The notes: generated by a model from the letters alone, not told the origin. A DNA stretch of 31,336 nucleotides from Prevotellaceae bacterium UBA3646 (GCA_002373535.1 DFKL01000076.1:1-31336), one strand, 5' to 3'. Shown: positions 10,361 to 31,336, numbered from the stretch's first letter. A program made the numbers and translations.

Positions 10361-11695
10361 CTACAGAGCCTTTACCAAGGCTTTGAACTGTTCGCCACGA
10401 TCCTCCATGTTCTTGAAAAGGTCAAAACTTGCACAGCACGGACTCAGCAGGACGGTATATCCGGGTTTAGCCATTTTTACACATGCTGCGACACAATCCT
10501 TCATGCTATGTGTGTCAGCAGTAGGAATACCCATTTTGTCGAAGAAATTATGCAGTTTGGTGTTGTCTGCTCCCAGATACACGATTCCTGCACATTTCTG
10601 CTTTACCAGCTCACGTATGGCTTCGTAGTCATTACCCTTGTCTTTGCCGCCGATGATCAGGATCGTCGGCGTCTCCATGCTTTCAAGTGCATACCAGCAA
10701 GCATCGACATTGGTCGCCTTCGAGTCATTGATAAAGTGTACGCCACCTACGGTCGCAACCTTTTCGAGACGATGCTCGACACCTTCAAAGTCAGACAGGC
10801 TCTTCCGCAGGTTTTCGTCACTTACACCAGCTATACGGGCAGCTATGCCGGCAGCCAGGGAGTTATACATATTATGCTTACCATGCAGTGAAAGAGATTC
10901 CTGCTCCATGTTAAACGGAGTCGGTTGCTCAATCGTATACGTTCCGTCACATATATAGCCTATCATTCCTTTCTTGCTCAATATGGAAAAAGGACATTTT
11001 TTTGATTTTATGCCATACTTCTTCAGTTCCTTCTTTATGATAGGATCGTCAGCCCAATAGATAAAAGCATCTTCCTCTGTCTGGTTCCGGATAATACGCA
11101 TCTTGGAATCAGTATAGTTCTGCATGTTATTGTCGTATCTGTCCAGATGGTCAGGAGTTATATTCAGGAGGATTGCGATGTTTGCACGGAAATCGTACAT
11201 GTTATCCAACTGGAAGCTGCTAAGCTCGATTACATAGTGAGTATAGCTGCACCCTTCTGCTATCTGCAGAGCCAGTGAGCGTCCGATATTGCCAGCCAGT
11301 CCTACGTTGTACCCAGCTTCCTTGAATATATGATATATCAGGCTTGTCGTGGTTGTCTTGCCATTGCTGCCTGTGATACATATCATCTGGGCGTTAGTGT
11401 AACGGCCGGCAAACTCTATCTCGCTGATTATGGGAATACCGGCATCTGAGGCTTTTAGTACTATGGGGGCATTGTCAGGTATCCCCGGACTTTTTACTAT
11501 CTCATCCGCAGATACGATTTTCTCCTCCGTATGCTTGTTCTCTTCCCATTCAATTCCATATTTGTCAAGAATATCCTTGTACCCGGCCTTGATGTTTCCC
11601 ATATCGCTTACAAAGACCTCGAAGCCTTTTTTCAGGGCCAGTACGGCAGCGCCTACTCCGCTTTCTGCAGCACCGAGAATTACCATCCTCTTCAT
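10361..11695 (-). CDS. murD: UDP-N-acetylmuramoyl-L-alanine--D-glutamate ligase
   Basis: VKSPGIP, ITGSNGKTTT, GNIG, ELSSFQL, NITPDHLDRY, HRLE, NDSKATNV, GGKDKG, LSPCCASFDLFKN. Confidence 0.97.
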   Translation of the reverse strand: MKRMVILGAAESGVGAAVLALKKGFEVFVSDMGNIKAGYKDILDKYGIEWEENKHTEEKIVSADEIVKSPGIPDNAPIVLKASDAGIPIISEIEFAGRYTNAQMICITGSNGKTTTTSLIYHIFKEAGYNVGLAGNIGRSLALQIAEGCSYTHYVIELSSFQLDNMYDFRANIAILLNITPDHLDRYDNNMQNYTDSKMRIIRNQTEEDAFIYWADDPIIKKELKKYGIKSKKCPFSILSKKGMIGYICDGTYTIEQPTPFNMEQESLSLHGKHNMYNSLAAGIAARIAGVSDENLRKSLSDFEGVEHRLEKVATVGGVHFINDSKATNVDACWYALESMETPTILIIGGKDKGNDYEAIRELVKQKCAGIVYLGADNTKLHNFFDKMGIPTADTHSMKDCVAACVKMAKPGYTVLLSPCCASFDLFKNMEDRGEQFKALVKAL

Positions 11696-18392: not shown

Positions 18393-18424
18393 GTGCGTGT
18401 ACCTTTTATTGATGAATTTGGGGA

Positions 18425-18456
18425 CAAATATACAATTTTCTCCACAATTCCCCACC
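18425..18456 (-). promoter_or_regulatory. dcw operon promoter (-7 box) with MraZ-box-like direct repeats
   Basis: Minus strand GGTGGGGAATTGTGGAGAAAATTGTATATTTG: GTGGG and GTGGA exactly 10 bp apart, then TATATTTG (TAnnTTTG). GTGG(G/A) repeats at 10-bp spacing are the known MraZ operator pattern. Confidence 0.75.
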
Positions 18457-18616
18457 GCTTTTTTAATTTATTTTTGCAGGCGGCACTAATATTTGTTCAG
18501 GCCATCGTGTGCGACATGCGCCATGCAGTATTCTGCTGTCGATAAAATGGGCAATTTACGAACAATTTTAACATTTATGTTTCCTAAGATAAAAATATTG
18601 CAAGATAAGTTTTTCA

Positions 18617-18640
18617 GGTGGGGAATTTTTCTTAACTTTG
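18617..18640 (+). promoter_or_regulatory. Promoter (-7 box) of the cyclophilin gene
   Basis: TAACTTTG at 18633-18640 (TAnnTTTG), preceded by GGTGGGGAATT at 18617-18627. Confidence 0.6.
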
Positions 18641-18671
18641 CCGGCAATGATTAAATTGACTGTTCGGGAAT

Positions 18672-19397
18672 ATGTTTGGGAACACAAGGAACATTCCTGT
18701 GAAAGTAGTGGCCGTAGTGCTCATCGTCTTGCTGGCAAGTCCTTCGGTGTGGGCAAGACGCAAGGAAAAAAGGAGTGTGGTACGTCTCGAGACGACAATG
18801 GGAACAATACGTATTGCACTTATGGATGAGACACCTGTCCATCGGGACAATTTCCTGAAGCTCACGGAACAAGGGTTTTACGACGGGACGCTGTTCCATC
18901 GCGTTATCAAGGACTTTATGATTCAGGGCGGAGACCCAGCCAGCCGCACCGCACGTCAGGGCGAGGTCCTCGGCAACGGTGACGTAGGTTATACCCTGCC
19001 GCCGGAATTCTTCCTGCCCGATCTGTACCACAGGCGCGGCATGGTTGCGGCAGCCCGTGAAGGAGATGACGTCAATCCTGGCCGCCGCAGCAGCGGGTGT
19101 CAGTTTTACATCGTGTGGGGAAGGAAATGGAGGCCTGCGCCTCTCGATAGAATCCGCGCGTCTTGGGAAGAAAAGGGGTACGAATACACACGTTTTATGA
19201 CAGACGATTATCAGACCCTGGGCGGAACGCCCCATCTTGATGGGGAATATACAGTGTTCGGCGAGGTGATAGAAGGTCTCGGCGTCGTAGGTGAAATACA
19301 GCTTGCCGACACGGACTCCAACGACCGTCCTGTCCGCGATATTCGTATCCTCAAGGCTGTCGTGGAGCAATACGGCCGTGCTGCGCAATATCGTTGA
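18672..19397 (+). CDS. Cyclophilin-type peptidyl-prolyl cis-trans isomerase with signal peptide
   Basis: LETTMGTIRIAL..ETPVHRDNF, YDGTLFHRVIKDFMIQGGDP, RGMVAAAR, SSGCQFYIV, GGTPHLDGEYTVFGEV; hydrophobic N-terminus ending SVWA. Confidence 0.95.
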   Translation: MFGNTRNIPVKVVAVVLIVLLASPSVWARRKEKRSVVRLETTMGTIRIALMDETPVHRDNFLKLTEQGFYDGTLFHRVIKDFMIQGGDPASRTARQGEVLGNGDVGYTLPPEFFLPDLYHRRGMVAAAREGDDVNPGRRSSGCQFYIVWGRKWRPAPLDRIRASWEEKGYEYTRFMTDDYQTLGGTPHLDGEYTVFGEVIEGLGVVGEIQLADTDSNDRPVRDIRILKAVVEQYGRAAQYR

Positions 19398-19475
19398 AAC
19401 CGACATGTTTAGACGACATTGTGGTAAAAAGGCACAATTTGTCCATTTCTTCATGCACACGCGAAAAGAAAAGTG

Positions 19476-19483
19476 TATTTTTG
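19476..19483 (+). promoter_or_regulatory. Putative -7 promoter box for the surface-protein operon
   Basis: TATTTTTG matches TAnnTTTG, about 54 nt upstream of ATG 19537. No correctly spaced -33 element. Confidence 0.5.
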
Positions 19484-19536
19484 TCGTCGCATAGGAGTAT
19501 CGTTGTAGGTTATTTCGAGAAAACAAACGTCATGAC

Positions 19537-22500
19537 ATGAAGATAAAGTCACTTTTAATATCTGTTTTAATGGCGATGTCGTCAACAGTATTGATGGTTT
19601 CCTGTATATCCGAGGCACCATTGGAAATTGAATGCGATATCGATGAAATATATGTCCATGTAGACAAGCCTCTGGAAGTTTTCAACAGCGAGTCGGATAC
19701 CCTGCACCAGTTCCTCCCTATTGATACCAGACACGTGTTTTCTGTCAGGCACGACGCAAGTCTGGGACGGTACCCAGTGTACATCAAGACATCCAAGGGC
19801 TCGACTGCATATATTGTCGTAGACGGCAGGGAGGAGCTGTTCGAAAACGGCATGCCAGTGGATTTCGCCGGTGAGCGGATTCAGAAATTTGTCGTTCGCT
19901 GTGAGAGTGGCGAGTGGAGCAAGACTTACGAGATTTCAATGGAGCGTCAGCCTGCATATACCGTTTTGACCGAGATGCTGATAGACTTCAACGGCAATTA
20001 TACAGTCCAGGGCACTACCTCTGCTACACCAGGCTACTACGTCTGGAAGGAAACGGATCCGGTAATAACCAAAAATCTTTTCCGTGCCGGAGACCCTGTA
20101 TGGAAGAACGGAAATCCCGGGTATATATTGAGCCGCGGGTCTTCCGCACCGGAGGACTATCCCACGGTACCGGTATTTAACGGAGGCATGGACGGAACAG
20201 ACTGCGTCAAGTTGCATACACGCAGCACAGGCTCGTTTGGACAGATGGTGAACATACCTTTGGCAGCCGGCAGTATGTTCAACGGACTTTTCGATTCAAG
20301 CAAGGCATTGAGCGATGCCCGCAAGGCAACACGCTTCGGAGCGCCATGCCCCCATAAGCCTGTCCGTATCGAGGCAGACCTTAAGTACGAGCCGGGCTCA
20401 AGGTTTCAGGATTCTGAAGAAAATGAGATTACAGGTGTCGTCGACGAACCGGACTTGTATTGTGTGATCTATCGCAACGTCGACGAGAACGGCAATCCTG
20501 TCATGCTTGACGGCGACGACATCCTGACCAGCAAGTATATTCTCGGGGTAGCCCGTCTGCAACACACTTACAATATGGTCTGGAACGAGGAGGAACAGCG
20601 CCATATACCCGAACCGGTGCTTACCAATAGCCCAACGCATGGCGTCACGACAGAGTGGGGGCACGTGTCGATACCCGTCAACTACGACTTTTTCCAGACA
20701 GGGCACGAGAACACGCTCGACCCGGTGATATTGAAGAACCGTGGCTACAGCGTCGTGATAGGTTCGACCAGCAGCTGGCGCGGAGCCTATTTCGAGGGAG
20801 CGTTGGATTCCAAGCTGTATATGGACAATATCAAGGTCATCTTCGAGGATCCCGAAGACCAGGGCGACGATACGCTTCCCATAACCTCAGCCAGCATTGT
20901 CGTCGATGACCCGTTGGCATTGTTCCAGGAAGAGTCAGACAGCGTCCGGTATCTGGAAGAAGGGGCCACCAATATCATCTTCCCCGTCAAGTGGGATGCC
21001 GATATGAAATCCGTACCGCTCACCATTCATGCAGGAAAAGGCTATGCCGTATATGACGAGAACGGCAAGGCTTTTGTCTCAGGGACAAAGGTGGATCTCT
21101 CCAAGGATAAAGTCTTGAAGCTCAAGGTACGTGATTCCGAGGGCAAATTGGAAATTGTCTATACCGTCAGTGCCAAGTTCCAGGATCAGCCGGTTCCGAC
21201 ACTCTCAACAGCCGCCATCATAGTCAGCACCCCGTTGTCCATATTCAACAGCGTGGGTGACAGCGTGCAGGGCCCCTCAGCGTCCAACGAGATAATATTC
21301 CCTGTCAGGTGGGACGCCGTCGTCACCTCAGTACCCCTGACCCTCAATGTCAGCAAGTGGGCTACAATCCAGGACGCAGCAGGCAATGCTTTCGTGTCTG
21401 GAAGCACTGTCGACCTGTCGGACGGACAGTTCCACCAGTTCAAGGTCTTCAGTCAGGACGGCTCTCAGGAGAATACCTACAAAGTCAAGGTTCAATACGC
21501 CGGGCAGACAGAGTTCTCCGTGTCGTCATTCAGCATCGTGGTGCAGAACCCGCTTGATATTTTCAGGCAGGCAGCCGACAGCGTCCAGACAGCCAGCGAG
21601 GCCGGCGAAGTCATCTTCCCTGTCAAGTGGAATGCCGACGTGACGTCCGTTCCACTTACGATACACGCTACAAGGTTCTCGACGATCTATGACGAGAATG
21701 ACGACACGTTCATCTCAGGTCAGAACGTAAACCTCTCGGATGGCCGTTTCCATACCTTTACGGTAAAGAGCCGCTTTGGCAAGAAGACACTGACGTACAA
21801 GGTCAGGGCTGACATAGGACAGGAACCACGCTATGTCTTCAGCTTCGAAAACGGAAGCACCACAAGCGGATACTACACATGGTCAGATGCCAATCTTGCA
21901 TCGTCATGGCAAACGACAAACGCAATGTTCAAGGTCCTCCGTAACGGAGCCTCCGTTGCAGAGTGCCCGGCCCGGCTGGACGGAACCACGTTGCTGCTCG
22001 AGACGACGGCCAACAATCCGACATACGCACCGATACTGAAGATGCGTACCGTCCCCGGGATGCTGTTTAACGGAACTATGGATTCATACAGCCAGCAACA
22101 GGCAATCAGCGGAGGACAGCCATATTTCCAGTCACTTCCACATTACGGAGCACCATTCCTACACAAGCCTACTAAGATGAAGGTACGTGCCAAGTATATC
22201 CCGGGCGAGAAATACTACAGAGGCAATACATACATTGCCGACGAGACAGATTCCCCCGACGTCTACTGCGTGTTCTACCGCAACATGGGCGGACAGTTCA
22301 CACTCTCTGCCGACAATCTGTTCACACACGGCAATATCGCAGGATATGCACGCCTTCATGGTTCTGGCAAGAGGATTGGCACTACATGGACAGACCTTGA
22401 GTTCAAGATAGAGACCTACAACGTAGATGCAAAGGCCATGGCAGGCGGAGGCTACAGCATGGCAGTCGGAGCGACCAGCAGTTGGAATGCCCTGAATATG

Positions 22501-22560
22501 GAGGGAGCCGAAGGGTCCAGGCTCTATATCGAAAGTATAACCATATATTACGAAGATTGA
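19537..22560 (+). CDS. Lipoprotein with two PCMD-like (putative carbohydrate metabolism) domains and four Ig-like repeats
   Basis: SPII lipobox LMVSC (Cys23). PCMD hallmarks occur twice: NIPLAAGSMFNG...FGAPCPHKP...SSWRGAYFEGALDSKLYMDNIKV and TVPGMLFNG...YGAPFLHKP...SSWNALNMEGAEGSRLYIESITI. Recognised by eye. Confidence 0.8.
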   Translation: MKIKSLLISVLMAMSSTVLMVSCISEAPLEIECDIDEIYVHVDKPLEVFNSESDTLHQFLPIDTRHVFSVRHDASLGRYPVYIKTSKGSTAYIVVDGREELFENGMPVDFAGERIQKFVVRCESGEWSKTYEISMERQPAYTVLTEMLIDFNGNYTVQGTTSATPGYYVWKETDPVITKNLFRAGDPVWKNGNPGYILSRGSSAPEDYPTVPVFNGGMDGTDCVKLHTRSTGSFGQMVNIPLAAGSMFNGLFDSSKALSDARKATRFGAPCPHKPVRIEADLKYEPGSRFQDSEENEITGVVDEPDLYCVIYRNVDENGNPVMLDGDDILTSKYILGVARLQHTYNMVWNEEEQRHIPEPVLTNSPTHGVTTEWGHVSIPVNYDFFQTGHENTLDPVILKNRGYSVVIGSTSSWRGAYFEGALDSKLYMDNIKVIFEDPEDQGDDTLPITSASIVVDDPLALFQEESDSVRYLEEGATNIIFPVKWDADMKSVPLTIHAGKGYAVYDENGKAFVSGTKVDLSKDKVLKLKVRDSEGKLEIVYTVSAKFQDQPVPTLSTAAIIVSTPLSIFNSVGDSVQGPSASNEIIFPVRWDAVVTSVPLTLNVSKWATIQDAAGNAFVSGSTVDLSDGQFHQFKVFSQDGSQENTYKVKVQYAGQTEFSVSSFSIVVQNPLDIFRQAADSVQTASEAGEVIFPVKWNADVTSVPLTIHATRFSTIYDENDDTFISGQNVNLSDGRFHTFTVKSRFGKKTLTYKVRADIGQEPRYVFSFENGSTTSGYYTWSDANLASSWQTTNAMFKVLRNGASVAECPARLDGTTLLLETTANNPTYAPILKMRTVPGMLFNGTMDSYSQQQAISGGQPYFQSLPHYGAPFLHKPTKMKVRAKYIPGEKYYRGNTYIADETDSPDVYCVFYRNMGGQFTLSADNLFTHGNIAGYARLHGSGKRIGTTWTDLEFKIETYNVDAKAMAGGGYSMAVGATSSWNALNMEGAEGSRLYIESITIYYED
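20875..21822 (+). repeat. Three tandem ~105-aa Ig-like repeats inside the lipoprotein (a fourth, more diverged copy at ~19630-19950)
   Basis: IIFPVKWDADMKSVPLTIH / IIFPVRWDAVVTSVPLTLN / VIFPVKWNADVTSVPLTIH; AFVSGTKVDLS / AFVSGSTVDLS / TFISGQNVNLS. Confidence 0.9.
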
Positions 22561-23408
22561 TGAACAGGATAGTAAGATATGCCACGGCATTCATATTATG
22601 CGCCATCTCGGTGCAGACGTGGGCCCAGGAGACAAATGTCGACACACCTATTCCCGTTGCAGACAAGTGGGAACGCTGGGGACCGACCAGTCGTACAGGC
22701 TTTGGTTTCCTCTTGAAGATGGGCTACAGCATAGGAGGCTATTCACCACTCCCCATTCCGCGCGAAATCCGTGAGATACAGAAGTTCAGTCCTCAAGGCG
22801 GTCTCAGCGTAGGCGTAGAGGGATACAAGATGTTCAATCGCCGCTGGGGACTCAAGGTAGGCCTCATTCTGGCCAATCAGGGATTCTCCACAAAGGCCGA
22901 GGTAAAGAACTACTATACCAAGATAGTACTTGACGGCGAAGAGCAGAAAGGCTGGTTCACGGGAATTAACGAGACCAGCATCAACAACTGGACTATAACG
23001 ATACCCGTAATGGCCACGTTCCGCATGAGTCCCAGGTGGAATGTCAGCCTGGGCCCCTATCTCCAGATGTTCCTGTCAAAGAACTTTGATGCCAAGGTAC
23101 ACGGCTTCCCCGAGGCCGAGCGTGCCGAGTCGGCATACCTCCGCGTAGACCACGGTGATGGCACAGGCCCTACGCAGGACAAGAACATATTTGGCCCGGA
23201 CAAGGTAGCCACTGCCAGCCTTGGAAAGGATATGGTCACCTGCACCACAGGCATGGAACTCCTCTTTGACTGGAAGGTCACCAGGCACATAAGTGCTTTT
23301 GGCAAGCTCGACTGGGGCTTTACCAGCATCTTCCCCGGCGATTACGACACCGTTCGCTTCAAGATGTTCCCGATATTCGGGACGATAGGCGGAGCATACA
23401 GCTATTAG
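22560..23408 (+). CDS. Outer-membrane beta-barrel (porin/PorT-like family), probable start MNRIVRY at 22560
   Basis: SPI signal (…VQTWA-Q), amphipathic strands (LKMGYSIGG, WGLKVGL, WNVSLGPY, ISAFGKLDWGF), C-terminal beta-signal FGTIGGAYSY; TGATG overlap with the upstream lipoprotein stop. Confidence 0.85.
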   Translation: MNRIVRYATAFILCAISVQTWAQETNVDTPIPVADKWERWGPTSRTGFGFLLKMGYSIGGYSPLPIPREIREIQKFSPQGGLSVGVEGYKMFNRRWGLKVGLILANQGFSTKAEVKNYYTKIVLDGEEQKGWFTGINETSINNWTITIPVMATFRMSPRWNVSLGPYLQMFLSKNFDAKVHGFPEAERAESAYLRVDHGDGTGPTQDKNIFGPDKVATASLGKDMVTCTTGMELLFDWKVTRHISAFGKLDWGFTSIFPGDYDTVRFKMFPIFGTIGGAYSY

Positions 23409-23456
23409 CGATAGTATTAAAGGAAACAGGCAGAATCAATAAAAAGAGAACTTCAG

Positions 23457-26363
23457 ATGAGGAAAATATTTACGTCGTTAGTTGTAAGCCTTCTAGCCTT
23501 CGCAGTCAGGGCGCAGGAAACATACATGTTTCAAAACCCCGGTTTCGAGCAGTGGGGAGATATATCCTACAGCGGAGTGACACAGACAGCCCCCGTGGCA
23601 TGGCATTCCTACCTTACAGGCACGGGAGCGGTAAAGGCCAACGCTACAAAGTATGCAGCCCCGCTGGAAAAAGGAGAGCCACGCCCTGGCTCAGCAGGCA
23701 CCACAAGCGTTGTTATAAAGGCCAAGAACTATCTGACGCTGAATCTTGCAGGTAACATAACAACAGGATGTGTCGAGATGGGACACCTCAACCAGGGAAA
23801 CACCACAGTCAACTACAACTACACCGACATCCCCGGAGGCCAGGCTATGCCGTTTACCGGACGCCCTGATTCTATGAAGGTCTGGATTCGTTTCAGCGGC
23901 GTGAACAAAGGACAGATAGCAGCATACCTGCACAGCGATGGACGCTTCCAGTTCCCGATAGCCACAGGCCAGGCAATTACGGCACAGATGGTAGGCAGCG
24001 CAGCATCGTTTGCCGACAGCAACGACCAGTGGACGGAATACACCATACCATTCAACTATGTAGGCATAGACAATCCGGCATATGCACTCGTATCGTTCAC
24101 GACCACCAACATACCAGGCCGTGGCAGCAAGGACGACTACATGTACATAGACGACATCTCACTCGTATACAACAGCGAGCTTACCGAGATCAAGTACAAC
24201 GGTAAAAGCATAATAGGCAAGACTTCCGTAGATGCCGAATACGACGAGAGCAAACTTTCCGGACTTAGGTCCAATGGAGCCGGAGCCGTCATATCACACG
24301 AGTACGATCCTGACACATACATCCTTACCGTAAAGGTGACAGCCCAGGACGAAAGCTCCACACACACATACACCTACCAGTTCCGCAAACCCACCGTATA
24401 TTATACCATCACATTCCTTACCCATGACGGCCAGACAATAACCTCCAGGACCGTTCAGGAGGGAACCCCCGTCACCCCGCCCAATGCACCGGCACGCGAA
24501 GGATATACTTTCTCCGGATGGAGTCCCGAGATTGTCTCCCCGGCACAAGGCGATGCCACCTATACGGCCACCTACGAGGAGATAGTTCCCGACGACGTAT
24601 ACTACACAGTCACCTTCCTGGACTATGACGGCCAGACCATCTTCACCACACAAGTCAAGGAGGGCGACAACATCATCGTCCCGGACGACCCTGTACGCGA
24701 AGGATACACCTTTACAGGATGGACGCCGGCCATCGTCAGCATCGTAACCGCCAACGCCACCTACATGGCCACCTACGAGAAGGACGAAGAGCCGGAACCC
24801 GTACACCAATGGCCAACCGCAGGGACCGAGAAGACATACCAGGACAATGTCACCGTGGCAATCAACGGCCAGAAGGAAAATCCGCAGCCATGTACCGTCC
24901 TTGTCAGATACGGCCAGGATGGAGCCATAGATTTCTCCCTCAATGATTTTGTACTCATCAGCAACGGAGACGAAATCCCCGTCGGCAATATCAGCGTCAG
25001 CAACATAGCCCAGGAATGGGACCGTACCATATCCGCCGGCAAGTTCACCTACAACGGCAACATCACCATCCCCGAGGGTAGCGACCCTTCAAAGTTCTGG
25101 ATGGGACCCTACCTTGGTGTCATACCAATGCAGATGACAGGCGAGATGAACGACGGTCAGCTGCATGTACGCATCTTCATCAACCTCATGTCCACCATGG
25201 GGCAGATGATACAAGTCGAGGTCGGAAACGAACTCGGTCAGGATGCCGAGCCCATAATAACCTATAAGCTCAAGCCCGGCTCCGTGACCTTCACCCCATC
25301 CGTGCTGACATACGATGCAACCACCGTCCAGATGTCCTACGTAATACTCAAGCACTCATCCAAGGCAGACGTCCAGGACGTCGAGATACCACGCACTGCC
25401 ACCCTTGACTGGTTCCGGACAGACGCCGAGAAGCCTATAGCCGGCACATACTACGATTCAGAATACAAGGTAGAGGTACAGTACTATATCCTCAAGCCCG
25501 CCAAGCCCGCCCCCAAGATAACCTATTGGCTCAAGTCGGAATCCATCAGCTACAGCCCGGAGGTAATACCGTACGATGCCACGTCCGTCAACCTCAACTA
25601 TGTCGTCATCAAGCACTCTTCCGACGAAAGCGTTGCAGACCAGGAGATAAACCGCACATACGCCATCACGTGGGAAGCAACAGACGACGAAGTCAAGATG
25701 AGCGGCACATACACAGACACCAAGTACGGCGTACAAGTACCATACAGCATCTGGAAGCTTGCCAAGCCGGCATGGGTCATGCCCACCTCAGGCACCAAGA
25801 CATACAAGGAAGATCTCTACGTCGGAGTCGACGGCAAGCTCAACGGCCCCATGGACAGCGAGGTGCAGATTACGTTTCATGACGACAACACCATAGACCT
25901 GGCACTCTACAATTTCATCCTCAAGTCAGGAGACTCGGAACTATACGTAGGCAACATCCTCATAGAAGCCGTAGACCTCACGGACACAGGCCATCACTAT
26001 TCGACCTTCGAGTACAACGGAACTTTGGAGATAGCCGCAGGCACAGACCCCTTCGATGCACAATGGATGGGTCCCCTGCTGGGCACCCTGCCACTGCCTA
26101 CGGCCGGCAAGATCAACAACGAGGAACTCTTCGTAACCATCCAGTTAAAGGCCGGTGGACAGAATATAGACGTACAACTCGGTCACAAGACCTTCTTCGA
26201 CAATCTGGACGGTCAAGAATTTACCGGCGTCACGGATTTCGGTACACACACACCCTCGTTCCGCCCCGCCGTCCGCTCATGCTACGACCTGCAAGGCCGT
26301 CGCACAAGCCCTTCGTCCCGTGGAATACACATCATAGACGGCCGCCTCGTCATGAGACAGTGA
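23457..26363 (+). CDS. Secreted modular protein: PCMD-like domain, 2x InlB-B/Listeria-Bacteroides repeat, 2x calycin-like domain, 2x unassigned repeat, T9SS-type CTD
   Basis: SPI (FAVRA-Q); NPGFEQW...FTGRPDSMKVWIRF...YMYIDDISLVY; YTITF..DG...P.REGYTF.GW twice; WMGPYLG / WMGPLLG; C-terminus YDLQGRR...RGIHIIDGRLVMRQ. Confidence 0.78.
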   Translation: MRKIFTSLVVSLLAFAVRAQETYMFQNPGFEQWGDISYSGVTQTAPVAWHSYLTGTGAVKANATKYAAPLEKGEPRPGSAGTTSVVIKAKNYLTLNLAGNITTGCVEMGHLNQGNTTVNYNYTDIPGGQAMPFTGRPDSMKVWIRFSGVNKGQIAAYLHSDGRFQFPIATGQAITAQMVGSAASFADSNDQWTEYTIPFNYVGIDNPAYALVSFTTTNIPGRGSKDDYMYIDDISLVYNSELTEIKYNGKSIIGKTSVDAEYDESKLSGLRSNGAGAVISHEYDPDTYILTVKVTAQDESSTHTYTYQFRKPTVYYTITFLTHDGQTITSRTVQEGTPVTPPNAPAREGYTFSGWSPEIVSPAQGDATYTATYEEIVPDDVYYTVTFLDYDGQTIFTTQVKEGDNIIVPDDPVREGYTFTGWTPAIVSIVTANATYMATYEKDEEPEPVHQWPTAGTEKTYQDNVTVAINGQKENPQPCTVLVRYGQDGAIDFSLNDFVLISNGDEIPVGNISVSNIAQEWDRTISAGKFTYNGNITIPEGSDPSKFWMGPYLGVIPMQMTGEMNDGQLHVRIFINLMSTMGQMIQVEVGNELGQDAEPIITYKLKPGSVTFTPSVLTYDATTVQMSYVILKHSSKADVQDVEIPRTATLDWFRTDAEKPIAGTYYDSEYKVEVQYYILKPAKPAPKITYWLKSESISYSPEVIPYDATSVNLNYVVIKHSSDESVADQEINRTYAITWEATDDEVKMSGTYTDTKYGVQVPYSIWKLAKPAWVMPTSGTKTYKEDLYVGVDGKLNGPMDSEVQITFHDDNTIDLALYNFILKSGDSELYVGNILIEAVDLTDTGHHYSTFEYNGTLEIAAGTDPFDAQWMGPLLGTLPLPTAGKINNEELFVTIQLKAGGQNIDVQLGHKTFFDNLDGQEFTGVTDFGTHTPSFRPAVRSCYDLQGRRTSPSSRGIHIIDGRLVMRQ
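24396..24783 (+). repeat. Two tandem InlB B-repeat-like (Listeria-Bacteroides repeat) units
   Basis: VYYTITFLTHDGQTI...PAREGYTFSGWSP...GDATYTATYE and VYYTVTFLDYDGQTI...PVREGYTFTGWTP...ANATYMATYE; DNA similarity is also visible (gacggccagac; cgcgaaggata). Confidence 0.85.
25254..25769 (+). repeat. Two tandem ~86-aa unassigned repeats
   Basis: ITYKLKPGSVTFTPSVLTYDATTVQMSYVILKHSS...GTYYDSEYKVEVQYYILKPAKP versus ITYWLKSESISYSPEVIPYDATSVNLNYVVIKHSS...GTYTDTKYGVQVPYSIWKLAKP. Confidence 0.88.
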
Positions 26364-26412
26364 AACGACATCCGACAGAAGATAACCAAGAAAGCAGAAG
26401 AAAGAAAATAAG

Positions 26413-29400
26413 ATGAAAAGAATCTTTTACACCCTTGTCATGGCAGCAGCAGCCATCTCATCCAACGCACAGTACCAGATAGGCAATTCAGACTTCGAGC
26501 AGTGGGAAAGCGTTACCTACAGCGGAAAGACAGGCGAGGAGCCCCTGCAGTGGAGTTCATTCCTGGACGGCACCGGCTCCATGAAGGGAATGGCAGGAGC
26601 AGCACAACTCTGGAAGAGCACCGAGACACGCCCTGGCACCGAGGGACGCTATAGCGCAGAAATCAAGGCACGCAACGTAATGTTCGGCATCATAGCCCAG
26701 GGCAACCTCACCACAGGCTGCGTCAATATGGGCTCCACTACCGCCACAGATGCAAGCGGCAACTACAACTATATCAACGAGAGCCGCACCGACCAGTCAA
26801 TGCGCTTCACCGGTCACCCCGATGCAGCACGCTATTGGGTCAGGTTCAACGGCAAGAACGACGGCAAGGTCAGCATCATCCTCACCACCAAAGGCTACTA
26901 CCAGGACCCTCAGGCCAACAAAATTACCGCTACCGTCGTAGCCAGCAGCATCAAGTCCACCCCCAGCAACGGCACCTGGACCCAGTACGTCGTACCCTTC
27001 GACGTCAAGGACGCGACCCTGGACCCATACTACGTCCTCGTAAACGTAAGCACCAGCGCAGTACCCGGTGACGGCGCCGAGGCCGACCACCTCTACATCG
27101 ACGACATGGAGATGCTCTACTACAGCGAGGCCAAGAGCATCATCTACGACGGCCAGGACATACTCGGTCAGAGCAAGATGAACTGCCTTTTCGACCCCGA
27201 AAAGCTCACCACCGTCACTACCACCGGCCGTGCCGCCACATGGACATACAGCTTCGACTACAACACATACGCCCTTACCGTGACCGTCAAGGGCGAAGAC
27301 ATCAGCCATAACCCCGACAACTACCACACATACACCATACCGTTCACCAAGCCCGATGCCGACATCAGCACCGCCACACAGGACGGCATAGACCTGCTTG
27401 CCAACTCTCAGAGCGTTATATATAATAAGGAACGCGTACAGCTCACCTTCAACCAGGACGTCAAGTCACACACCGAGACCTTCGACGTCACTACCTGTCA
27501 GCTTACGGTCGTGATGACAGACATCTTCGACAACAAGATAACACGCGTCATCCAGTTCCACGTACCAGCTCCCGCCATCGAGTCCGCCATGTGGCAAGGT
27601 GAGCCCGTCGGAGTAGAAGACTTTGCCACCACGGACATCTACAGCGAACAAGACTTCGTACTCACGCCCAACGCCGATGCAAACCTCGTACGCACGTTCG
27701 ACGAGACCACCCTCATCCTCACCGTCACCGCCCAGGCGGCACCAGGCTACGAAATCTTCAATCGCATATACACATACCAGTTCGGCCTCGGCCAGATGCC
27801 AGACCCGCGACAGGAAACCGTCGAGCCCGTCAAGATGGAGAAGAACCGCCAGTACTATATCAAGAACAAATACCACGGCCGGTACGTCAAGGACGACAAC
27901 ACCCTCTCCTCAGGCGAAGGCACCGAGCTCACCAAGTGGACCGTGACAGACGACAACTGCATACGAAGCTCAAACAACAGATACTTCAACATCACCATCA
28001 ACACCAGTGCCCTTGTCACATCCCCCTCGAGCGTATCCTATAGCGTCAGCAGCACCTCCGCCTCCCAGCTCGACATACAGCAGTCTACCGACGGCTACAT
28101 CTTATCCAGCACCGCCACATGGTGGGCATGGTTCGTCGAGCGCTCATACCAGGCATACCTCTACTGGAAGGAAAATCCGGCAGAAGGCGTCGACGGAGCC
28201 AACACCATGCAAGCCTACGGCGACGGAGACCCCCGCAACGACCTTGCCAAGTGGCAATTCTTCGACTGCAACACAGTAGACTGCCTCAATCTCCGCATAC
28301 AACTGTACGACGAGCTCACCCGCGCCCAGCAGATGGGAATGGACATCACGGCCTATCGCCAGACCATGAACAAGAACGCCACCGACAAGAACGTCCTTAA
28401 CGAGCTTCTTGCCACCGTCCGTGCCGACCAGTTCAACTTCGTCAACGACGGATTCACCGTAGACCGCACCGCCCTGCTCGGCACCACAGACCTCACCGAC
28501 GCCACATATTGGAATACCAATATGTCCAAGAACACCACCGGTGGCCATCACTGGGACGGCACCATGACACCATACTACGAGCAGTCAGCCTCCCCCGTCA
28601 ATCTGTACGACACATCCGCCCCATGGACATCCAGCGCCAGCCAGACCGTCCATCTCCCAGCCGGCCACTACATGGTCAAGGCCACCGCGCGTGCCAGCCA
28701 GCAAGCCCAGTCATACATCCAGGTCGGCGATCAGCAAGTCTCCTTCCCCTCCAAGGGCGATACCGGCCGTGGCGTAGACGTCAACGGCAAAGTCAATTTC
28801 CGTAGCTCCGGCACCTATGCCAACAACAACATCGGTCGCGGCTGGGAATACCGCTACCTCGCCTTCGACGTGCAAAATCCAGACGACGCCGTCACCATCG
28901 AGATTGGCGGCTCCTGCCCCGGCATCATCCACCAGTGGATCTCCATCAGCGACATCCAGCTCCTTGCCAAGCCAGCCCCCGAGCTCAAGATGCTGCAGTA
29001 CACATACGACGGCAAGGACTATACACCCACAGCCGACAACACCATCGACCTCTCAGACATCTACTGGAAGGAAGAACTCACACCCGAAGTCCATACCGCC
29101 GGCTACGGTGACTACGAGTGCCGTTTCGACTCCGTCCAGTGGCAGATGCACGTAACCCTCACCCAAGAGTCCGGCATCAACTACGGCTACGCCCCCGTGC
29201 GTTACACCATCCAGTACCACAAGCCCTCGCCCGCCCTCACCACCCTCACCTTCGACGGCGAGGACATCCTCGGCGCCACCACCGTCGACAAGTACTACAA
29301 TGCCAGCCTGCTGACCTACGCCACCAACCAGGACACACAGAAAGTACGCCAGACCTTCGACCGCAAGACCAACGTACTCACCATCGTCACCAGCGGCTAC

Positions 29401-30000
29401 AATCTGGAACACACCTACACCATCACCTTCCGTGACGCATCCGCTGTCAGCACCCAGTTCACCGAACTCGTAGCCGTCACCATCAACGATGACGCCTCCG
29501 ACCCCGAGCAGACCACCGTCTACACCCGCGACAACGGCGACGGCACCTTCGACTTCGAGCTCCCCGACTTCCAGCTCAACGTCGGCGGCGAGGCAATGCC
29601 CATCGGCACCATCGTCCTCTCCGGCATCACTATGACCAACCAAGACGGCGTCAGCACGTTCCGCATCCGTCAGACCGTCACCATTGCCGCAGGCGACAAG
29701 GAAGGAATCACCACCGACGAATGGTTCGGTCCCTGGCTCGGCAATATACCCATCGACCTCACCATAGGCAAGATCTACGCAGGCCGCCTGTACTGCGAGA
29801 TGGACATAGACATGCAGGAGACACTCGGCCAGACCATCCGCGTCGTCGTCGGCCAGGACATCGAGACCGCCGTCCGTGACATCAACGCCCATGGCACGCA
29901 GGACACCTCCGCCCCCGCCTACGACCTCAGCGGACGCCGCATCACCTCCGGCACGCGCGGTATACAGATACGCCGTGGTCACAAAGTCATAGTCCGATAG
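26413..30000 (+). CDS. Secreted modular protein: PCMD-like domain, five copies of an unassigned ~70-80-aa module, lectin/CBM-like core, calycin-like domain, T9SS-type CTD
   Basis: SPI (ISSNA-Q); NSDFEQW...FTGHPDAARYWVRF...HLYIDDMEMLY; calycin-like WFGPWLGNIP...LGQTIRVVVG; C-terminus TAVRDI...AYDLSGRR...RGIQIRRGHKVIVR. Confidence 0.78.
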   Translation: MKRIFYTLVMAAAAISSNAQYQIGNSDFEQWESVTYSGKTGEEPLQWSSFLDGTGSMKGMAGAAQLWKSTETRPGTEGRYSAEIKARNVMFGIIAQGNLTTGCVNMGSTTATDASGNYNYINESRTDQSMRFTGHPDAARYWVRFNGKNDGKVSIILTTKGYYQDPQANKITATVVASSIKSTPSNGTWTQYVVPFDVKDATLDPYYVLVNVSTSAVPGDGAEADHLYIDDMEMLYYSEAKSIIYDGQDILGQSKMNCLFDPEKLTTVTTTGRAATWTYSFDYNTYALTVTVKGEDISHNPDNYHTYTIPFTKPDADISTATQDGIDLLANSQSVIYNKERVQLTFNQDVKSHTETFDVTTCQLTVVMTDIFDNKITRVIQFHVPAPAIESAMWQGEPVGVEDFATTDIYSEQDFVLTPNADANLVRTFDETTLILTVTAQAAPGYEIFNRIYTYQFGLGQMPDPRQETVEPVKMEKNRQYYIKNKYHGRYVKDDNTLSSGEGTELTKWTVTDDNCIRSSNNRYFNITINTSALVTSPSSVSYSVSSTSASQLDIQQSTDGYILSSTATWWAWFVERSYQAYLYWKENPAEGVDGANTMQAYGDGDPRNDLAKWQFFDCNTVDCLNLRIQLYDELTRAQQMGMDITAYRQTMNKNATDKNVLNELLATVRADQFNFVNDGFTVDRTALLGTTDLTDATYWNTNMSKNTTGGHHWDGTMTPYYEQSASPVNLYDTSAPWTSSASQTVHLPAGHYMVKATARASQQAQSYIQVGDQQVSFPSKGDTGRGVDVNGKVNFRSSGTYANNNIGRGWEYRYLAFDVQNPDDAVTIEIGGSCPGIIHQWISISDIQLLAKPAPELKMLQYTYDGKDYTPTADNTIDLSDIYWKEELTPEVHTAGYGDYECRFDSVQWQMHVTLTQESGINYGYAPVRYTIQYHKPSPALTTLTFDGEDILGATTVDKYYNASLLTYATNQDTQKVRQTFDRKTNVLTIVTSGYNLEHTYTITFRDASAVSTQFTELVAVTINDDASDPEQTTVYTRDNGDGTFDFELPDFQLNVGGEAMPIGTIVLSGITMTNQDGVSTFRIRQTVTIAAGDKEGITTDEWFGPWLGNIPIDLTIGKIYAGRLYCEMDIDMQETLGQTIRVVVGQDIETAVRDINAHGTQDTSAPAYDLSGRRITSGTRGIQIRRGHKVIVR

Positions 30001-30008
30001 ACATACAC

Positions 30009-31151
30009 ATGCAAGAAATGGACAGCAACGCCAACATACTGATGCTCACCTTTGCCTGCTGCACCATGGCACACGCCGTGGCCACCGCAGTTATGGCAAT
30101 ATACGCACGCTACAAGGTCCAATACCTCAGTCTCGCATGGATTATGGGCGTCTTCACCGCCATCCTGCTTGTCATTACCCCCTACAGCACCAGCATAGCC
30201 CACGGACACCCCGGTCTCCTGCACCCCGGCATGCTGCTCATGTTCGTCGTCGGCAGCTACCTGCAGAGCATCTATACCTTCGGCTTCACCATGCCAGGAT
30301 TCCTGCAGTGGGAACGCATGTGGGGCTATGCAGCCCCCATCATCATCCTGGCCCTCGTCTCCCTTGTAGCCTTCTATCCCTTCGGCAGCCTCACCAAGGT
30401 CTATACCATTTCCGAACTCCTCGACAACATCCTCTCCCCCGAGCTCATACTACGCATCATAGCACTTGTCATGGGTATCTACTACGTCATCAACATCTTC
30501 CGCCTTCCCCACCGCATGGCCTACAAGACCACCATACCCCCATACCTTGTCAGGTACTGCACGTTGCTCGGCCTCAGCTCCATACTCTACATCTACGTAT
30601 GTTTCAACTACAGCCCCGTCGGCCTATGCTGGTACGTAGCCGTTTTCTCCGCCATCAACCTCTATCTCGTCTTTCAGACCCTGGACAACATGGCACGCAC
30701 GCTGCCCCCGCCCCACATAGTCACCGAAGACGGCACCATCGAGGAAGACCCCGATGAAACCAGCCAAAATGACGACGAGGCCGAGGCACGCCGTCAGGAA
30801 GACTTCAACGAGAAGAACCTCCACTACTATCACCGTATACAGCATTGGATGCAGACCCACCGCAACGACTGGTGCGACTACACCTTCAACCGCGACCGCC
30901 TGTGCGAGGAGACCGGCATCAACCGTCAGCTCATACTCCAGTGCCTGCGCAGCCAGGGCTACAACAACGTACACGAATACATCACCATCTATCGCGTGCA
31001 GGAACTCAAGAACCTCATCAAGTCCGGACAGATGCAGACAGCCACCGAGAGCGACCTCGCCGGCTTCGCCACCGCCAAGACCGCCCGCCTCAGCTTCCAG
31101 CGCATCTACGGCATCAGCCTCGACCAGTACATCTCCCAGCACGCCAAGTAA
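30009..31151 (+). CDS. Membrane-embedded AraC-like transcriptional regulator (about 7 TM segments, acidic linker, HTH)
   Basis: Seven hydrophobic segments in aa ~10-225; acidic linker EEDPDETSQNDDE; AraC-like C-terminus RDRLCEETGINRQ...YITIYRVQELK...AGFATAKTARLSFQRIYGISLDQY. Alternative start at 30018. Confidence 0.78.
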   Translation: MQEMDSNANILMLTFACCTMAHAVATAVMAIYARYKVQYLSLAWIMGVFTAILLVITPYSTSIAHGHPGLLHPGMLLMFVVGSYLQSIYTFGFTMPGFLQWERMWGYAAPIIILALVSLVAFYPFGSLTKVYTISELLDNILSPELILRIIALVMGIYYVINIFRLPHRMAYKTTIPPYLVRYCTLLGLSSILYIYVCFNYSPVGLCWYVAVFSAINLYLVFQTLDNMARTLPPPHIVTEDGTIEEDPDETSQNDDEAEARRQEDFNEKNLHYYHRIQHWMQTHRNDWCDYTFNRDRLCEETGINRQLILQCLRSQGYNNVHEYITIYRVQELKNLIKSGQMQTATESDLAGFATAKTARLSFQRIYGISLDQYISQHAK

Positions 31152-31268
31152 GGCCGATCCGCACGCCCGGCATCCCTCAAATCCCACGGCTTTATCATGT
31201 CTCTGTCTACAAAAAATCTTTACACCCTTTCCCGGGGATATCAGAAAGACGCCAATTTTTTATACCTG

Positions 31269-31293
31269 TAACCCACTGATATTCAAACAGTTT
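31269..31293. promoter_or_regulatory. Dyad with IHF-consensus-like half sites
   Basis: AAC-N4-TGA-TAT-TCA-N4-GTT (31270-31292). Minus strand 31281-31269 reads TATCAGTGGGTTA, matching WATCARNNNNTTR. Confidence 0.45.
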
Positions 31294-31303
31294 ACTACAC
31301 TTC

Positions 31304-31336
31304 ACCGCTATATCGCCGGCTAAAGACCGGCTAAAG
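31304..31336 (+). repeat. Start of a short direct-repeat array truncated by the window edge
   Basis: CCGGCTAAAG at 31316-31325 and 31327-31336 (11-bp period), preceded by a degenerate copy CCGCTATATCG. Confidence 0.6.

Follow-up and report, generated by a model that had tools for sequence, protein, structure and literature searches.

A lipoprotein-barrel cassette of Prevotellaceae and its putative role as a glycan-binding surface complex

Genes, promoter and transcripts at the locus

We analysed a 31,336-nt stretch of DNA from Prevotellaceae bacterium UBA3646 (GCA_002373535.1, DFKL01000076.1:1-31336), hereafter the window, in which positions 19537-31151 hold five genes, g1 to g5, that an initial annotation had described as an uncharacterised surface system. 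Genes g1 to g4, which we call the cassette, encode a lipoprotein, a small beta-barrel and two large secreted cargo proteins. The window comprises the first 31336 bases of a 38.1-kb contig from a 1.6-Mb metagenome-assembled genome (MAG) that is 64.5% complete, and its closest public relatives are rumen and gut MAGs of Prevotellaceae type from water buffalo, yak, goat and other hosts. The features at the locus are as follows.

19537-22560, + strand: g1, open reading frame (ORF) of 1007 aa, lipoprotein
22560-23408, + strand: g2, ORF of 282 aa, small outer-membrane beta-barrel
23457-26363, + strand: g3, ORF of 968 aa, secreted protein
26413-30000, + strand: g4, ORF of 1195 aa, secreted protein
30009-31151, + strand: g5, ORF of 380 aa, seven hydrophobic segments and a putative, divergent AraC-type helix-turn-helix (HTH)
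19476-19483, + strand: promoter box TATTTTTG, Bacteroidota -7 type (TAnnTTTG)
18672-19397, + strand: exported cyclophilin-type peptidyl-prolyl isomerase (PPIase), the 5' neighbour, with RNA contigs of its own; hydrophobic N-terminus, PF00160 match at E 2e-40

The ORF coordinates agree with the five co-oriented genes that had been described, with intergenic distances of -1, 48, 49 and 8 nt, and the stop codon of g1 overlaps the start codon of g2 in TGATG. The -7 box proposed before g1 can be read at its place, and the reported absence of terminators between the genes was matched by a consensus scan of 18400-31336, which returned no terminator-like site on the + strand. Upstream lies the dcw (division and cell wall) cluster, mraZ to ftsZ, on the minus strand, followed by the PPIase gene on the + strand.

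Contigs assembled from metatranscriptomes (four runs from three studies of rumen and gut) indicate that the locus is transcribed. One RNA contig of 7708 nt spans 19502-27209 and crosses the g1/g2, g2/g3 and g3/g4 junctions, further contigs bridge g3/g4 in two more runs, and the g4/g5 junction (30000/30009) is bridged in two studies. All four junctions are thus covered, which supports the description of the five genes as one expressed unit, with the limit that contigs do not prove a single molecule. In each of the four runs, contigs over g1 begin at 19502-19548 and those over the PPIase gene end at 19178-19284, and the 218-nt spacer that holds the promoter box is uncovered. That the spacer is bare in all four runs speaks for RNA rather than contaminating DNA. 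There is a weak hint of a transcription start near 19490, about 20 nt after the box.

The frequency of C at third codon positions forms a gradient along the five genes (0.37 in g1, 0.41 in g2, 0.46 in g3, 0.62 in g4 and 0.63 in g5; genome ORF mean 0.338, sd 0.085), placing g4 and g5 7th-8th among 1065 ORFs. In the genes after g5 on the contig it is back to 0.31-0.42. Other ORFs with high values include likely highly expressed enzymes and other tail-bearing proteins. The gradient is weaker in two surveyed loci (L019, L020) and missing from two others (L022, L024).

Domains and C-terminal signals of the cassette proteins

The g1 product carries the lipobox LMVSC, with Cys23 as the lipid-bearing residue, followed by an immunoglobulin (Ig)-like domain, a PCMD domain, three Ig/cadherin-like repeats and a second PCMD domain, and can be described as a doubled BT2081-type protein. 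It matched PF13201 over two stretches (E 6e-81, 272 bits, cutoff 28), and its relatives in the PDB are 4het, 3hbz, 4jrl and 3s30. When a family profile was built from the first 440 residues of g1 and 22 shorter homologues, it matched 4het (1e-95) and 3hbz (1e-85) over their full length, and the solved BT2081-type proteins overall at E 1e-95 to 1e-80. The BT2081-type lipoproteins (3HBZ, 4HET, 4JRL, 3S30; PF13201) have in common with g1 the lipobox, the Ig-like domain, the jelly roll and a motif after the lipid Cys, C-x-x-(D/E)-E-P-x-N-x-E-C-D, that is present in 33 homologues; the g1 homologues of ~400 aa, like the first 440 residues of g1, match these proteins full length. By contrast, g1 itself is doubled, 1007 aa long and extended by three extra Ig-like repeats. 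The structure of BT2081 consists of an Ig domain and a jelly roll with a deep, conserved aromatic pocket; the 2010 paper that describes it ties the family to polysaccharide utilization loci (PULs) of the SusC type and does not mention a partner barrel (PMC2954218). Beyond that paper, we found nothing in the literature on the function of PF13201, PF13944 or these PDB codes.

The g2 product, with C-terminus ...AYSY, matched PF13568 (OMP_b-brl_2) at 60.8 bits (cutoff 27). Its model (predicted local distance difference test score, pLDDT, 84) has two strands of ~29 residues, and the best fold matches were small barrels of 8-10 strands at template-modelling (TM) scores of about 0.36-0.41, namely OmpA, OprG, Ail, OmpW and Pla in the PDB and OmpA, Omp25/31 and Opa among Swiss-Prot models. 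As modelled, g2 has the look of an anchor whose hairpins project, rather than that of a wide channel. We considered g2 as a PorT-type T9SS (type IX secretion system) component and rejected the assignment, since there was no NCBIfam match and the barrel occurs in SprA-negative genomes. PorP/SprF-type barrels anchor type B T9SS cargo, as in the SprB-SprF pair, and those systems likewise place a dedicated barrel gene beside large T9SS cargo genes. In contrast, g2 belongs to PF13568 only and not to the PorP_SprF family, with no NCBIfam match, the C-terminal tails of g3 and g4 are short and type A-like, unlike the type B C-terminal domains (CTDs) of PorP/SprF cargo, and barrels of the g2 type are also found in SprA-negative genomes, always with the lipoprotein.

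The g3 product consists of a signal peptide, a divergent PCMD head, an Ig-like domain, two Flg_new domains, a calycin domain, two ~90-aa repeats, a second calycin domain and a short CTD. The tandem repeats between the calycin domains (ITYKLKPGSVTFTPSVLTYDAT... and ITYWLKSESISYSPEVIPYDAT...; residues ~597-775, window 25245-25781) had no Pfam match. In g4, a signal peptide and a divergent PCMD head are followed by Ig-like repeats (residues 240-470), a low-pLDDT region (480-610), a helical hairpin (619-680), a jelly roll like that of a carbohydrate-binding module (CBM; ~684-854), a further Ig-like stretch (860-1010), a calycin domain (1014-1146) and a short CTD. The Calycin_like family (PF13944) was matched by g3 over two stretches at 106.2 bits and by g4 at 63.5 bits (cutoff 30). 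For PCMD, Pfam gave a sub-threshold score for g3 (22.5 bits, cutoff 28) and no match for g4; by hhalign, the N-terminal 225 residues of the two proteins appear to be a divergent PCMD domain (probability 95.5%, E 1.4e-8), and a profile of these heads matched 3hbz (2e-5) and 4jrl. With two PCMD domains in g1, the divergent heads of g3 and g4, two calycin domains in g3 and one in g4, we arrive at the four PCMD-like and three calycin-like domains of the initial annotation, whose domain inventory holds.

The full-length model of g4 (mean pLDDT 62) resolves the Ig-like repeats, the helical hairpin, the jelly roll and the calycin domain. Searching Foldseek with the whole model gave diffuse multi-domain matches of no use, and single-sequence PDB searches with g4 and with g5 returned no match. 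The ESM Atlas leads for residues 470-865 of g4 (HpiC1-like, CBM_4_9, RicinB) were all below 0.9 and were discarded. The jelly roll lies at the following coordinates.

28462-28974, + strand: CBM-like beta-jelly-roll of g4, residues ~684-854, by fold match only

In VIA-align, residues 684-854 aligned with the CBM61 module 2xom (Z 10.8, root-mean-square deviation (rmsd) 2.5, 123 residues aligned) and with 2zxq (Z 11.1), 8zqf (Z 10.7), 2zew (Z 9.9) and 4d0q (Z 9.2); besides CBM61, the fold matches comprise EngBF, CBM16 and modules that bind alginate, porphyran and hyaluronan. The g4 calycin domain aligned by the same method with 3rwx (Z 12.3, rmsd 2.6, 120 residues) and with BT2261 (3h3i; Z 9.1, rmsd 3.1, 104 residues).

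No SusC/D, glycoside hydrolase or peptidase family was found in the five proteins by Pfam or NCBIfam, and no ORF of the window encodes a SusC-like TonB-dependent transporter or SusD-like lipoprotein, in agreement with the earlier statement that the locus is not a PUL. NCBIfam gave a single result for the five proteins: in g4, residues 1-52 weakly matched the BT4411 hyaluronan-binding family (E 2e-4, 20.6 bits vs a cutoff of 220). We rejected this match, which covers mainly the signal peptide.

Both secreted proteins end in a short tail.

26223-26360, + strand: short T9SS-type C-terminal signal of g3, 46 aa, member of the tail alignment, profile E 4.7e-14 (own genome)
29860-29997, + strand: short T9SS-type C-terminal signal of g4, 46 aa, tail profile E 4.8e-17

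The tails belong to a family of 44-46 aa with the consensus ..TGI..V.........YDLSGRR.....KGIYIVNGKKV..K, whose profile also recognises a rumen arabinanase (4kca, 9e-10) and 7jvi at their C-termini. SprA, PorV and GldM are present in the genome of the window, where the canonical TIGR04183 has one match. Five SprA-positive genomes carry 33, 48, 89, 19 and 19 short tails, and five complete genomes that lack SprA gave none; this contrast is suggestive rather than a statistical test, as the ten genomes come from few clades. In the genome of the window, at least 33 ORFs carry the short tail, many of them longer than 1000 aa (for instance on contigs C151, C18, C173 and C149).

Prevotella intermedia has 48 short CTDs of 43-55 aa that are cleaved, with glycosylation of the new C-terminus; the prediction is that they bind PorV in the form of a three-strand sheet (PMC11969387, 2025). 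The tails here resemble them in length (44-46 vs 43-55 aa) and in the order of motifs, first a cleavage region in which I/V is conserved, then motif B (YDLSGRR) and, after a short gap, motifs D/E (GIYI.NGKKV..K); cleavage and glycosylation are results from P. intermedia. On account of this likeness and of the co-occurrence with SprA, we read the tails of g3 and g4 as short T9SS signals, and the T9SS-type tails claimed in the initial annotation are borne out as tails of the short kind. P. intermedia has been named as the only species reported with both kinds of CTD (PMC11969387); with 19-89 short tails in each of the rumen and gut relatives examined here, short T9SS signals seem to be the rule in this lineage and not a peculiarity of P. 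intermedia.

At the other end, the mature N-termini of g2, g3 and g4 would each start with Gln, which fits the 'Q-rule' of Bacteroidota. Where SprA-negative genomes encode a calycin partner, it is a lipoprotein whose signal is acidic and of the CSSDDDD type, so that the calycin module ends up tethered near the membrane whether by tail or by lipid.

A type I dockerin is found at the end of g4 orthologues in the nearest relatives (L019:17194-17493 and L020:17203-17502, equivalent to window 29701-30000), in which the barrel is 86-87% identical and the g4 orthologue 76-78%. Cargo proteins in L033 (14354-14653) and L047 (10838-11137) end likewise. In L019 the Pfam Dockerin_1 score of 22.1 bits falls slightly short of the cutoff; the other scores are 26.8, 47.2 and 33.7 bits.

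Conservation of the cassette and the position of g5

We compared 42 barrel loci, comprising the window, 26 loci found by barrel profile, seven from a survey of g5 neighbourhoods and eight from large genomes. A PCMD lipoprotein gene stands directly upstream of the barrel gene in 42/42, and calycin proteins are encoded within 9 kb of the barrel in 33/42 and bear tails in 29; in Prevotella-like genomes they come after the pair. Loci differ widely in how many cargo genes they hold and in how these are built; the lipoprotein-barrel pair is constant. In many genomes gene order is kept at 35-87% identity, which argues that the arrangement is not due to chance. At a threshold of E<=1e-30, the barrel family was present in 174/298 high-quality genomes of the GTDB family and in 18/27 genera, nearly always as a single copy. 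Within the genus of the window, 17/28 high-quality genomes have the barrel, so it is dispensable. No second cassette was detected in the genome of the window by tblastn of all domains, that genome being 64.5% complete.

The initial annotation had described a smaller module in Bacteroidales, made up of a calycin-like lipoprotein, a barrel, a PCMD lipoprotein and a nearby AraC gene. Eight of eight large SprA-negative genomes indeed have the PCMD lipoprotein and the barrel, with a calycin lipoprotein nearby in one (strict threshold) to three (lenient threshold) of them. The copy studied here is an enlarged version: its lipoprotein is doubled and its two cargo proteins are 968 and 1195 aa long. 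In L033 (~10800-11590, equivalent to L015:10612-11439), an unrelated 275-aa ORF (MTKKQALKLFQDRNVRVVWDDETEEWYF...) interrupts the cassette between the barrel and the first cargo gene and resembles, by eye, a phage antirepressor or a Bro-N-type DNA-binding protein.

We examined a complex prediction for lipoprotein residues 24-440 and barrel residues 31-282. The score was 0.44, compared to 0.00 for the best control, a verdict of 'weak support', with contact agreement of at least 34% and a partner pLDDT of at least 81 in the runs. The mark for this verdict is reached by 58/80 solved complexes and 2/110 mismatches; among scores of 0.60 or less that reach it there are only 7/80 solved complexes, yet both mismatches. 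Because the 42/42 adjacency and the start-stop overlap provide a fair prior, we consider the pair to be modestly supported by the prediction.

We then considered whether the five genes belong together as a single regulated system in which g5 serves as dedicated membrane sensor and AraC-type regulator, as the initial annotation supposed. The putative AraC-type HTH of g5 scored 23.5 bits in Pfam (cutoff 33.6), 19/20 of its homologues match the AraC HTH at E<=0.01 (best 7.9e-7), and a g5 profile matches the HTH of a hybrid two-component protein (12aw) at 6e-4. Its gap of 8 nt and shared orientation with g4, the RNA contigs that bridge g4/g5 in two studies, the extreme third-position C common to the two genes (0.62-0.63) and the position of g5 at the 3' end of the cassette in 11/26 barrel-selected loci, with varying cargo genes, all speak for such a system. 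However, when 15 loci were selected by g5 itself, 7/15 were free of the cassette within about 9 kb, and in two of these (L045, L048) mraW-mraZ are followed by PPIase-g5 with nothing between. In five more the cassette lies on the opposite strand, with g5 convergent to its end in four (L050, L051, L053, L054); in L052, a short contig, a cargo gene is convergent to g5 with no barrel in reach. The cassette is co-oriented with g5 in only 2/15, and g5 is convergent to it in genus g40. Two genomes of the same genus, G179 (93% complete) and G050 (100%), keep g5 at 49% identity with no barrel match, and g5, a single-copy gene, occurs in 4/35 genera sampled, far fewer than the 18/27 that have the barrel family. 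A regulated five-gene system is therefore unlikely. We conclude that g5 looks like a positional neighbour and not a component of the cassette, and that it is probably read through from g4 in this genome. Given g5 neighbourhoods that lack the cassette or carry it on the opposite strand, the cassette behaves as a variable insert between the PPIase gene and g5.

The g5 products form a compact family of ~380 aa with seven hydrophobic segments, an AraC-like HTH and many invariant residues in the membrane part, encoded nearly always near the dcw cluster and the PPIase gene. The latter adjoins the cassette in varying order: it lies upstream here and in many relatives, and directly 3' of the cassette in L029, L040 and L043, loci without mraW in the flank. 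Where the cassette is missing, the PPIase gene sits between mraZ and g5. Its link to the cassette could be that of a folding helper or simply synteny.

A candidate surface complex and its alternatives

Taken together, these results lead us to favour, by a slight lean, the view that g1-g4 encode a glycan-binding cell-surface complex of a type widespread in Bacteroidaceae and Prevotellaceae. The data show the order of the genes, their domains, their conservation and expression and the association of tails with SprA; from these we infer surface exposure, formation of a complex, calycin docking and a ligand, in the following arrangement. The base would be the BT2081-family lipoprotein, an Ig-like stalk with a deep-pocket PCMD jelly roll (here doubled), together with the small OmpA-like barrel, whose long hairpins may project from the membrane. 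Proteins g3 and g4 would be exported by the Sec pathway, after which their short three-strand C-terminal signal would take them across the outer membrane via the type IX system, to be cleaved and tied to lipopolysaccharide (LPS), probably just behind the last calycin-like domain. This calycin domain would lie next to the membrane and may dock on the base, which would leave spacers, CBM-like module and PCMD-like head facing outward. The job of such a complex is likely to be binding of a plant or host glycan for adhesion or substrate capture, as no catalytic domain is present.

Precedent for calycin docking comes by analogy from BT2261, one of two lipoproteins without assigned function in a stable complex with the BT2263-64 SusCD pair. 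On that 'utilisome'-type complex, which carries BT2261 and BT2262, BT2261 is likewise a calycin-like accessory surface protein stably attached to an outer-membrane barrel complex; in contrast to BT2263-64, g2 is a small OmpA-like barrel without TonB-dependent transporter, SusD lid or plug, which makes import through it unlikely. Because of the fold likeness of the CBM-like domain in g4 and of the PCMD heads, a glycan is the most likely target, and glycan binding, by way of the g4 CBM-like domain, is the only ligand class with support at the level of the modelled fold.

Several results weigh against a glycan-binding complex of this design. RNA assemblies can contain DNA, and two genes on one contig need not share a transcript. 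The last 99 residues of g3 and g4 gave no match to TIGR04183 at E<=10 and none to PF18962, and the tail profile reaches the CTDs of RgpB at E 0.15-0.46 only. In the nearest relatives the g4 orthologue ends in the dockerin, not in a CTD, which does not fit a simple T9SS route; to our knowledge there is no outer-membrane route in Bacteroidota for a signal-peptide protein without lipobox or CTD, and we know of no cohesin-like partner here. The PCMD head of g4 is unfolded in the model (pLDDT<50), its pocket not visible, the lipoprotein-barrel complex score reaches the 'weak support' grade only, and the calycin fold could point to a hydrophobic ligand.

The last of these can be developed into an alternative, namely capture and uptake by the cassette of a hydrophobic small molecule (lipid, sterol, pigment or haem-like). 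Bound by the calycin/lipocalin-like domains and in the deep aromatic PCMD pocket, it would be handed to an OmpW/OprG-like barrel for passage. The three Calycin_like domains would suit it, as would OprG and OmpW among the best fold matches of g2, the depth and aromatic lining of the BT2081 pocket (PMC2954218) and the deposition of 3h3i as a 'putative lipid binding protein' (3rwx was deposited as a hypothetical outer-membrane protein). However, the 3h3i label is the depositor's guess, g2 matches OmpA, Ail and Opa equally at the same low TM of 0.36-0.41, inner-membrane transport genes are absent from the cassette, and g4 brings a CBM-like module and Ig spacers typical of adhesins and glycan binders. 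We regard a hydrophobic ligand as quite unlikely.

Alternatively, the PCMD domains may be glycoside hydrolases and the cassette a surface system for cutting polysaccharide. All four PDB relatives of g1 (4het, 3hbz, 4jrl, 3s30) were titled 'putative glycoside hydrolase' by their depositors, and the authors of the BT2081 structure proposed Asp259 and Asp338 as possible catalytic residues in an exo-acting pocket, yet held a non-catalytic CBM role equally open (PMC2954218). Against such an activity, the literature that we found holds no measured activity for any member, none of the five proteins has a CAZy-type catalytic family by Pfam or NCBIfam, and no SusC/D importer adjoins the cassette for product uptake, so that a hydrolytic role appears distinctly improbable.

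Least probable of all is a role in building the envelope or as a structural coat, linked to cell division, which would account for the fixed place beside the dcw cluster (mraZ/mraW adjoin the cassette in most Prevotella-like loci) and the exported PPIase (adjacent in varying orders, also in the three loci without mraW in the flank), but which is at odds with the loss of the barrel from same-genus genomes that are 93-100% complete and from 11/28 high-quality genus members, with the location of the pair elsewhere in large SprA-negative genomes, with fast divergence (36-52% vs 67% identity for MraW) and with modular cargo typical of accessory surface proteins.

A wider proposal builds on the glycan-binding complex. 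The lipoprotein-barrel pair may be the base of an undescribed Bacteroidota surface apparatus, distinct from SusCD, that docks membrane-proximal calycin modules of large binding proteins, and the tethers of these proteins would be interchangeable among lineages and close relatives (short T9SS signal with LPS, N-terminal lipid, or dockerin). We offer it tentatively and consider it rather doubtful in this general form. The domain families and one crystal-structure paper were already known; in the literature we found no description of the cassette, its barrel partner, its T9SS-fed cargo or its spread.

Prevotella-type bacteria dominate the rumen and many guts, and most of their large surface proteins lack a known role. 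More than half of the good genomes sampled in the family have the cassette, and metatranscriptomes of rumen and gut from three studies show its transcription. Identifying its ligand would give a function to PF13201, PF13944 and a PF13568 subfamily together and would show what part surface proteins outside PULs play in attachment to fibre or host glycans. Our survey also suggests that the short T9SS signal, reported so far for one oral species, is common in rumen and gut relatives.

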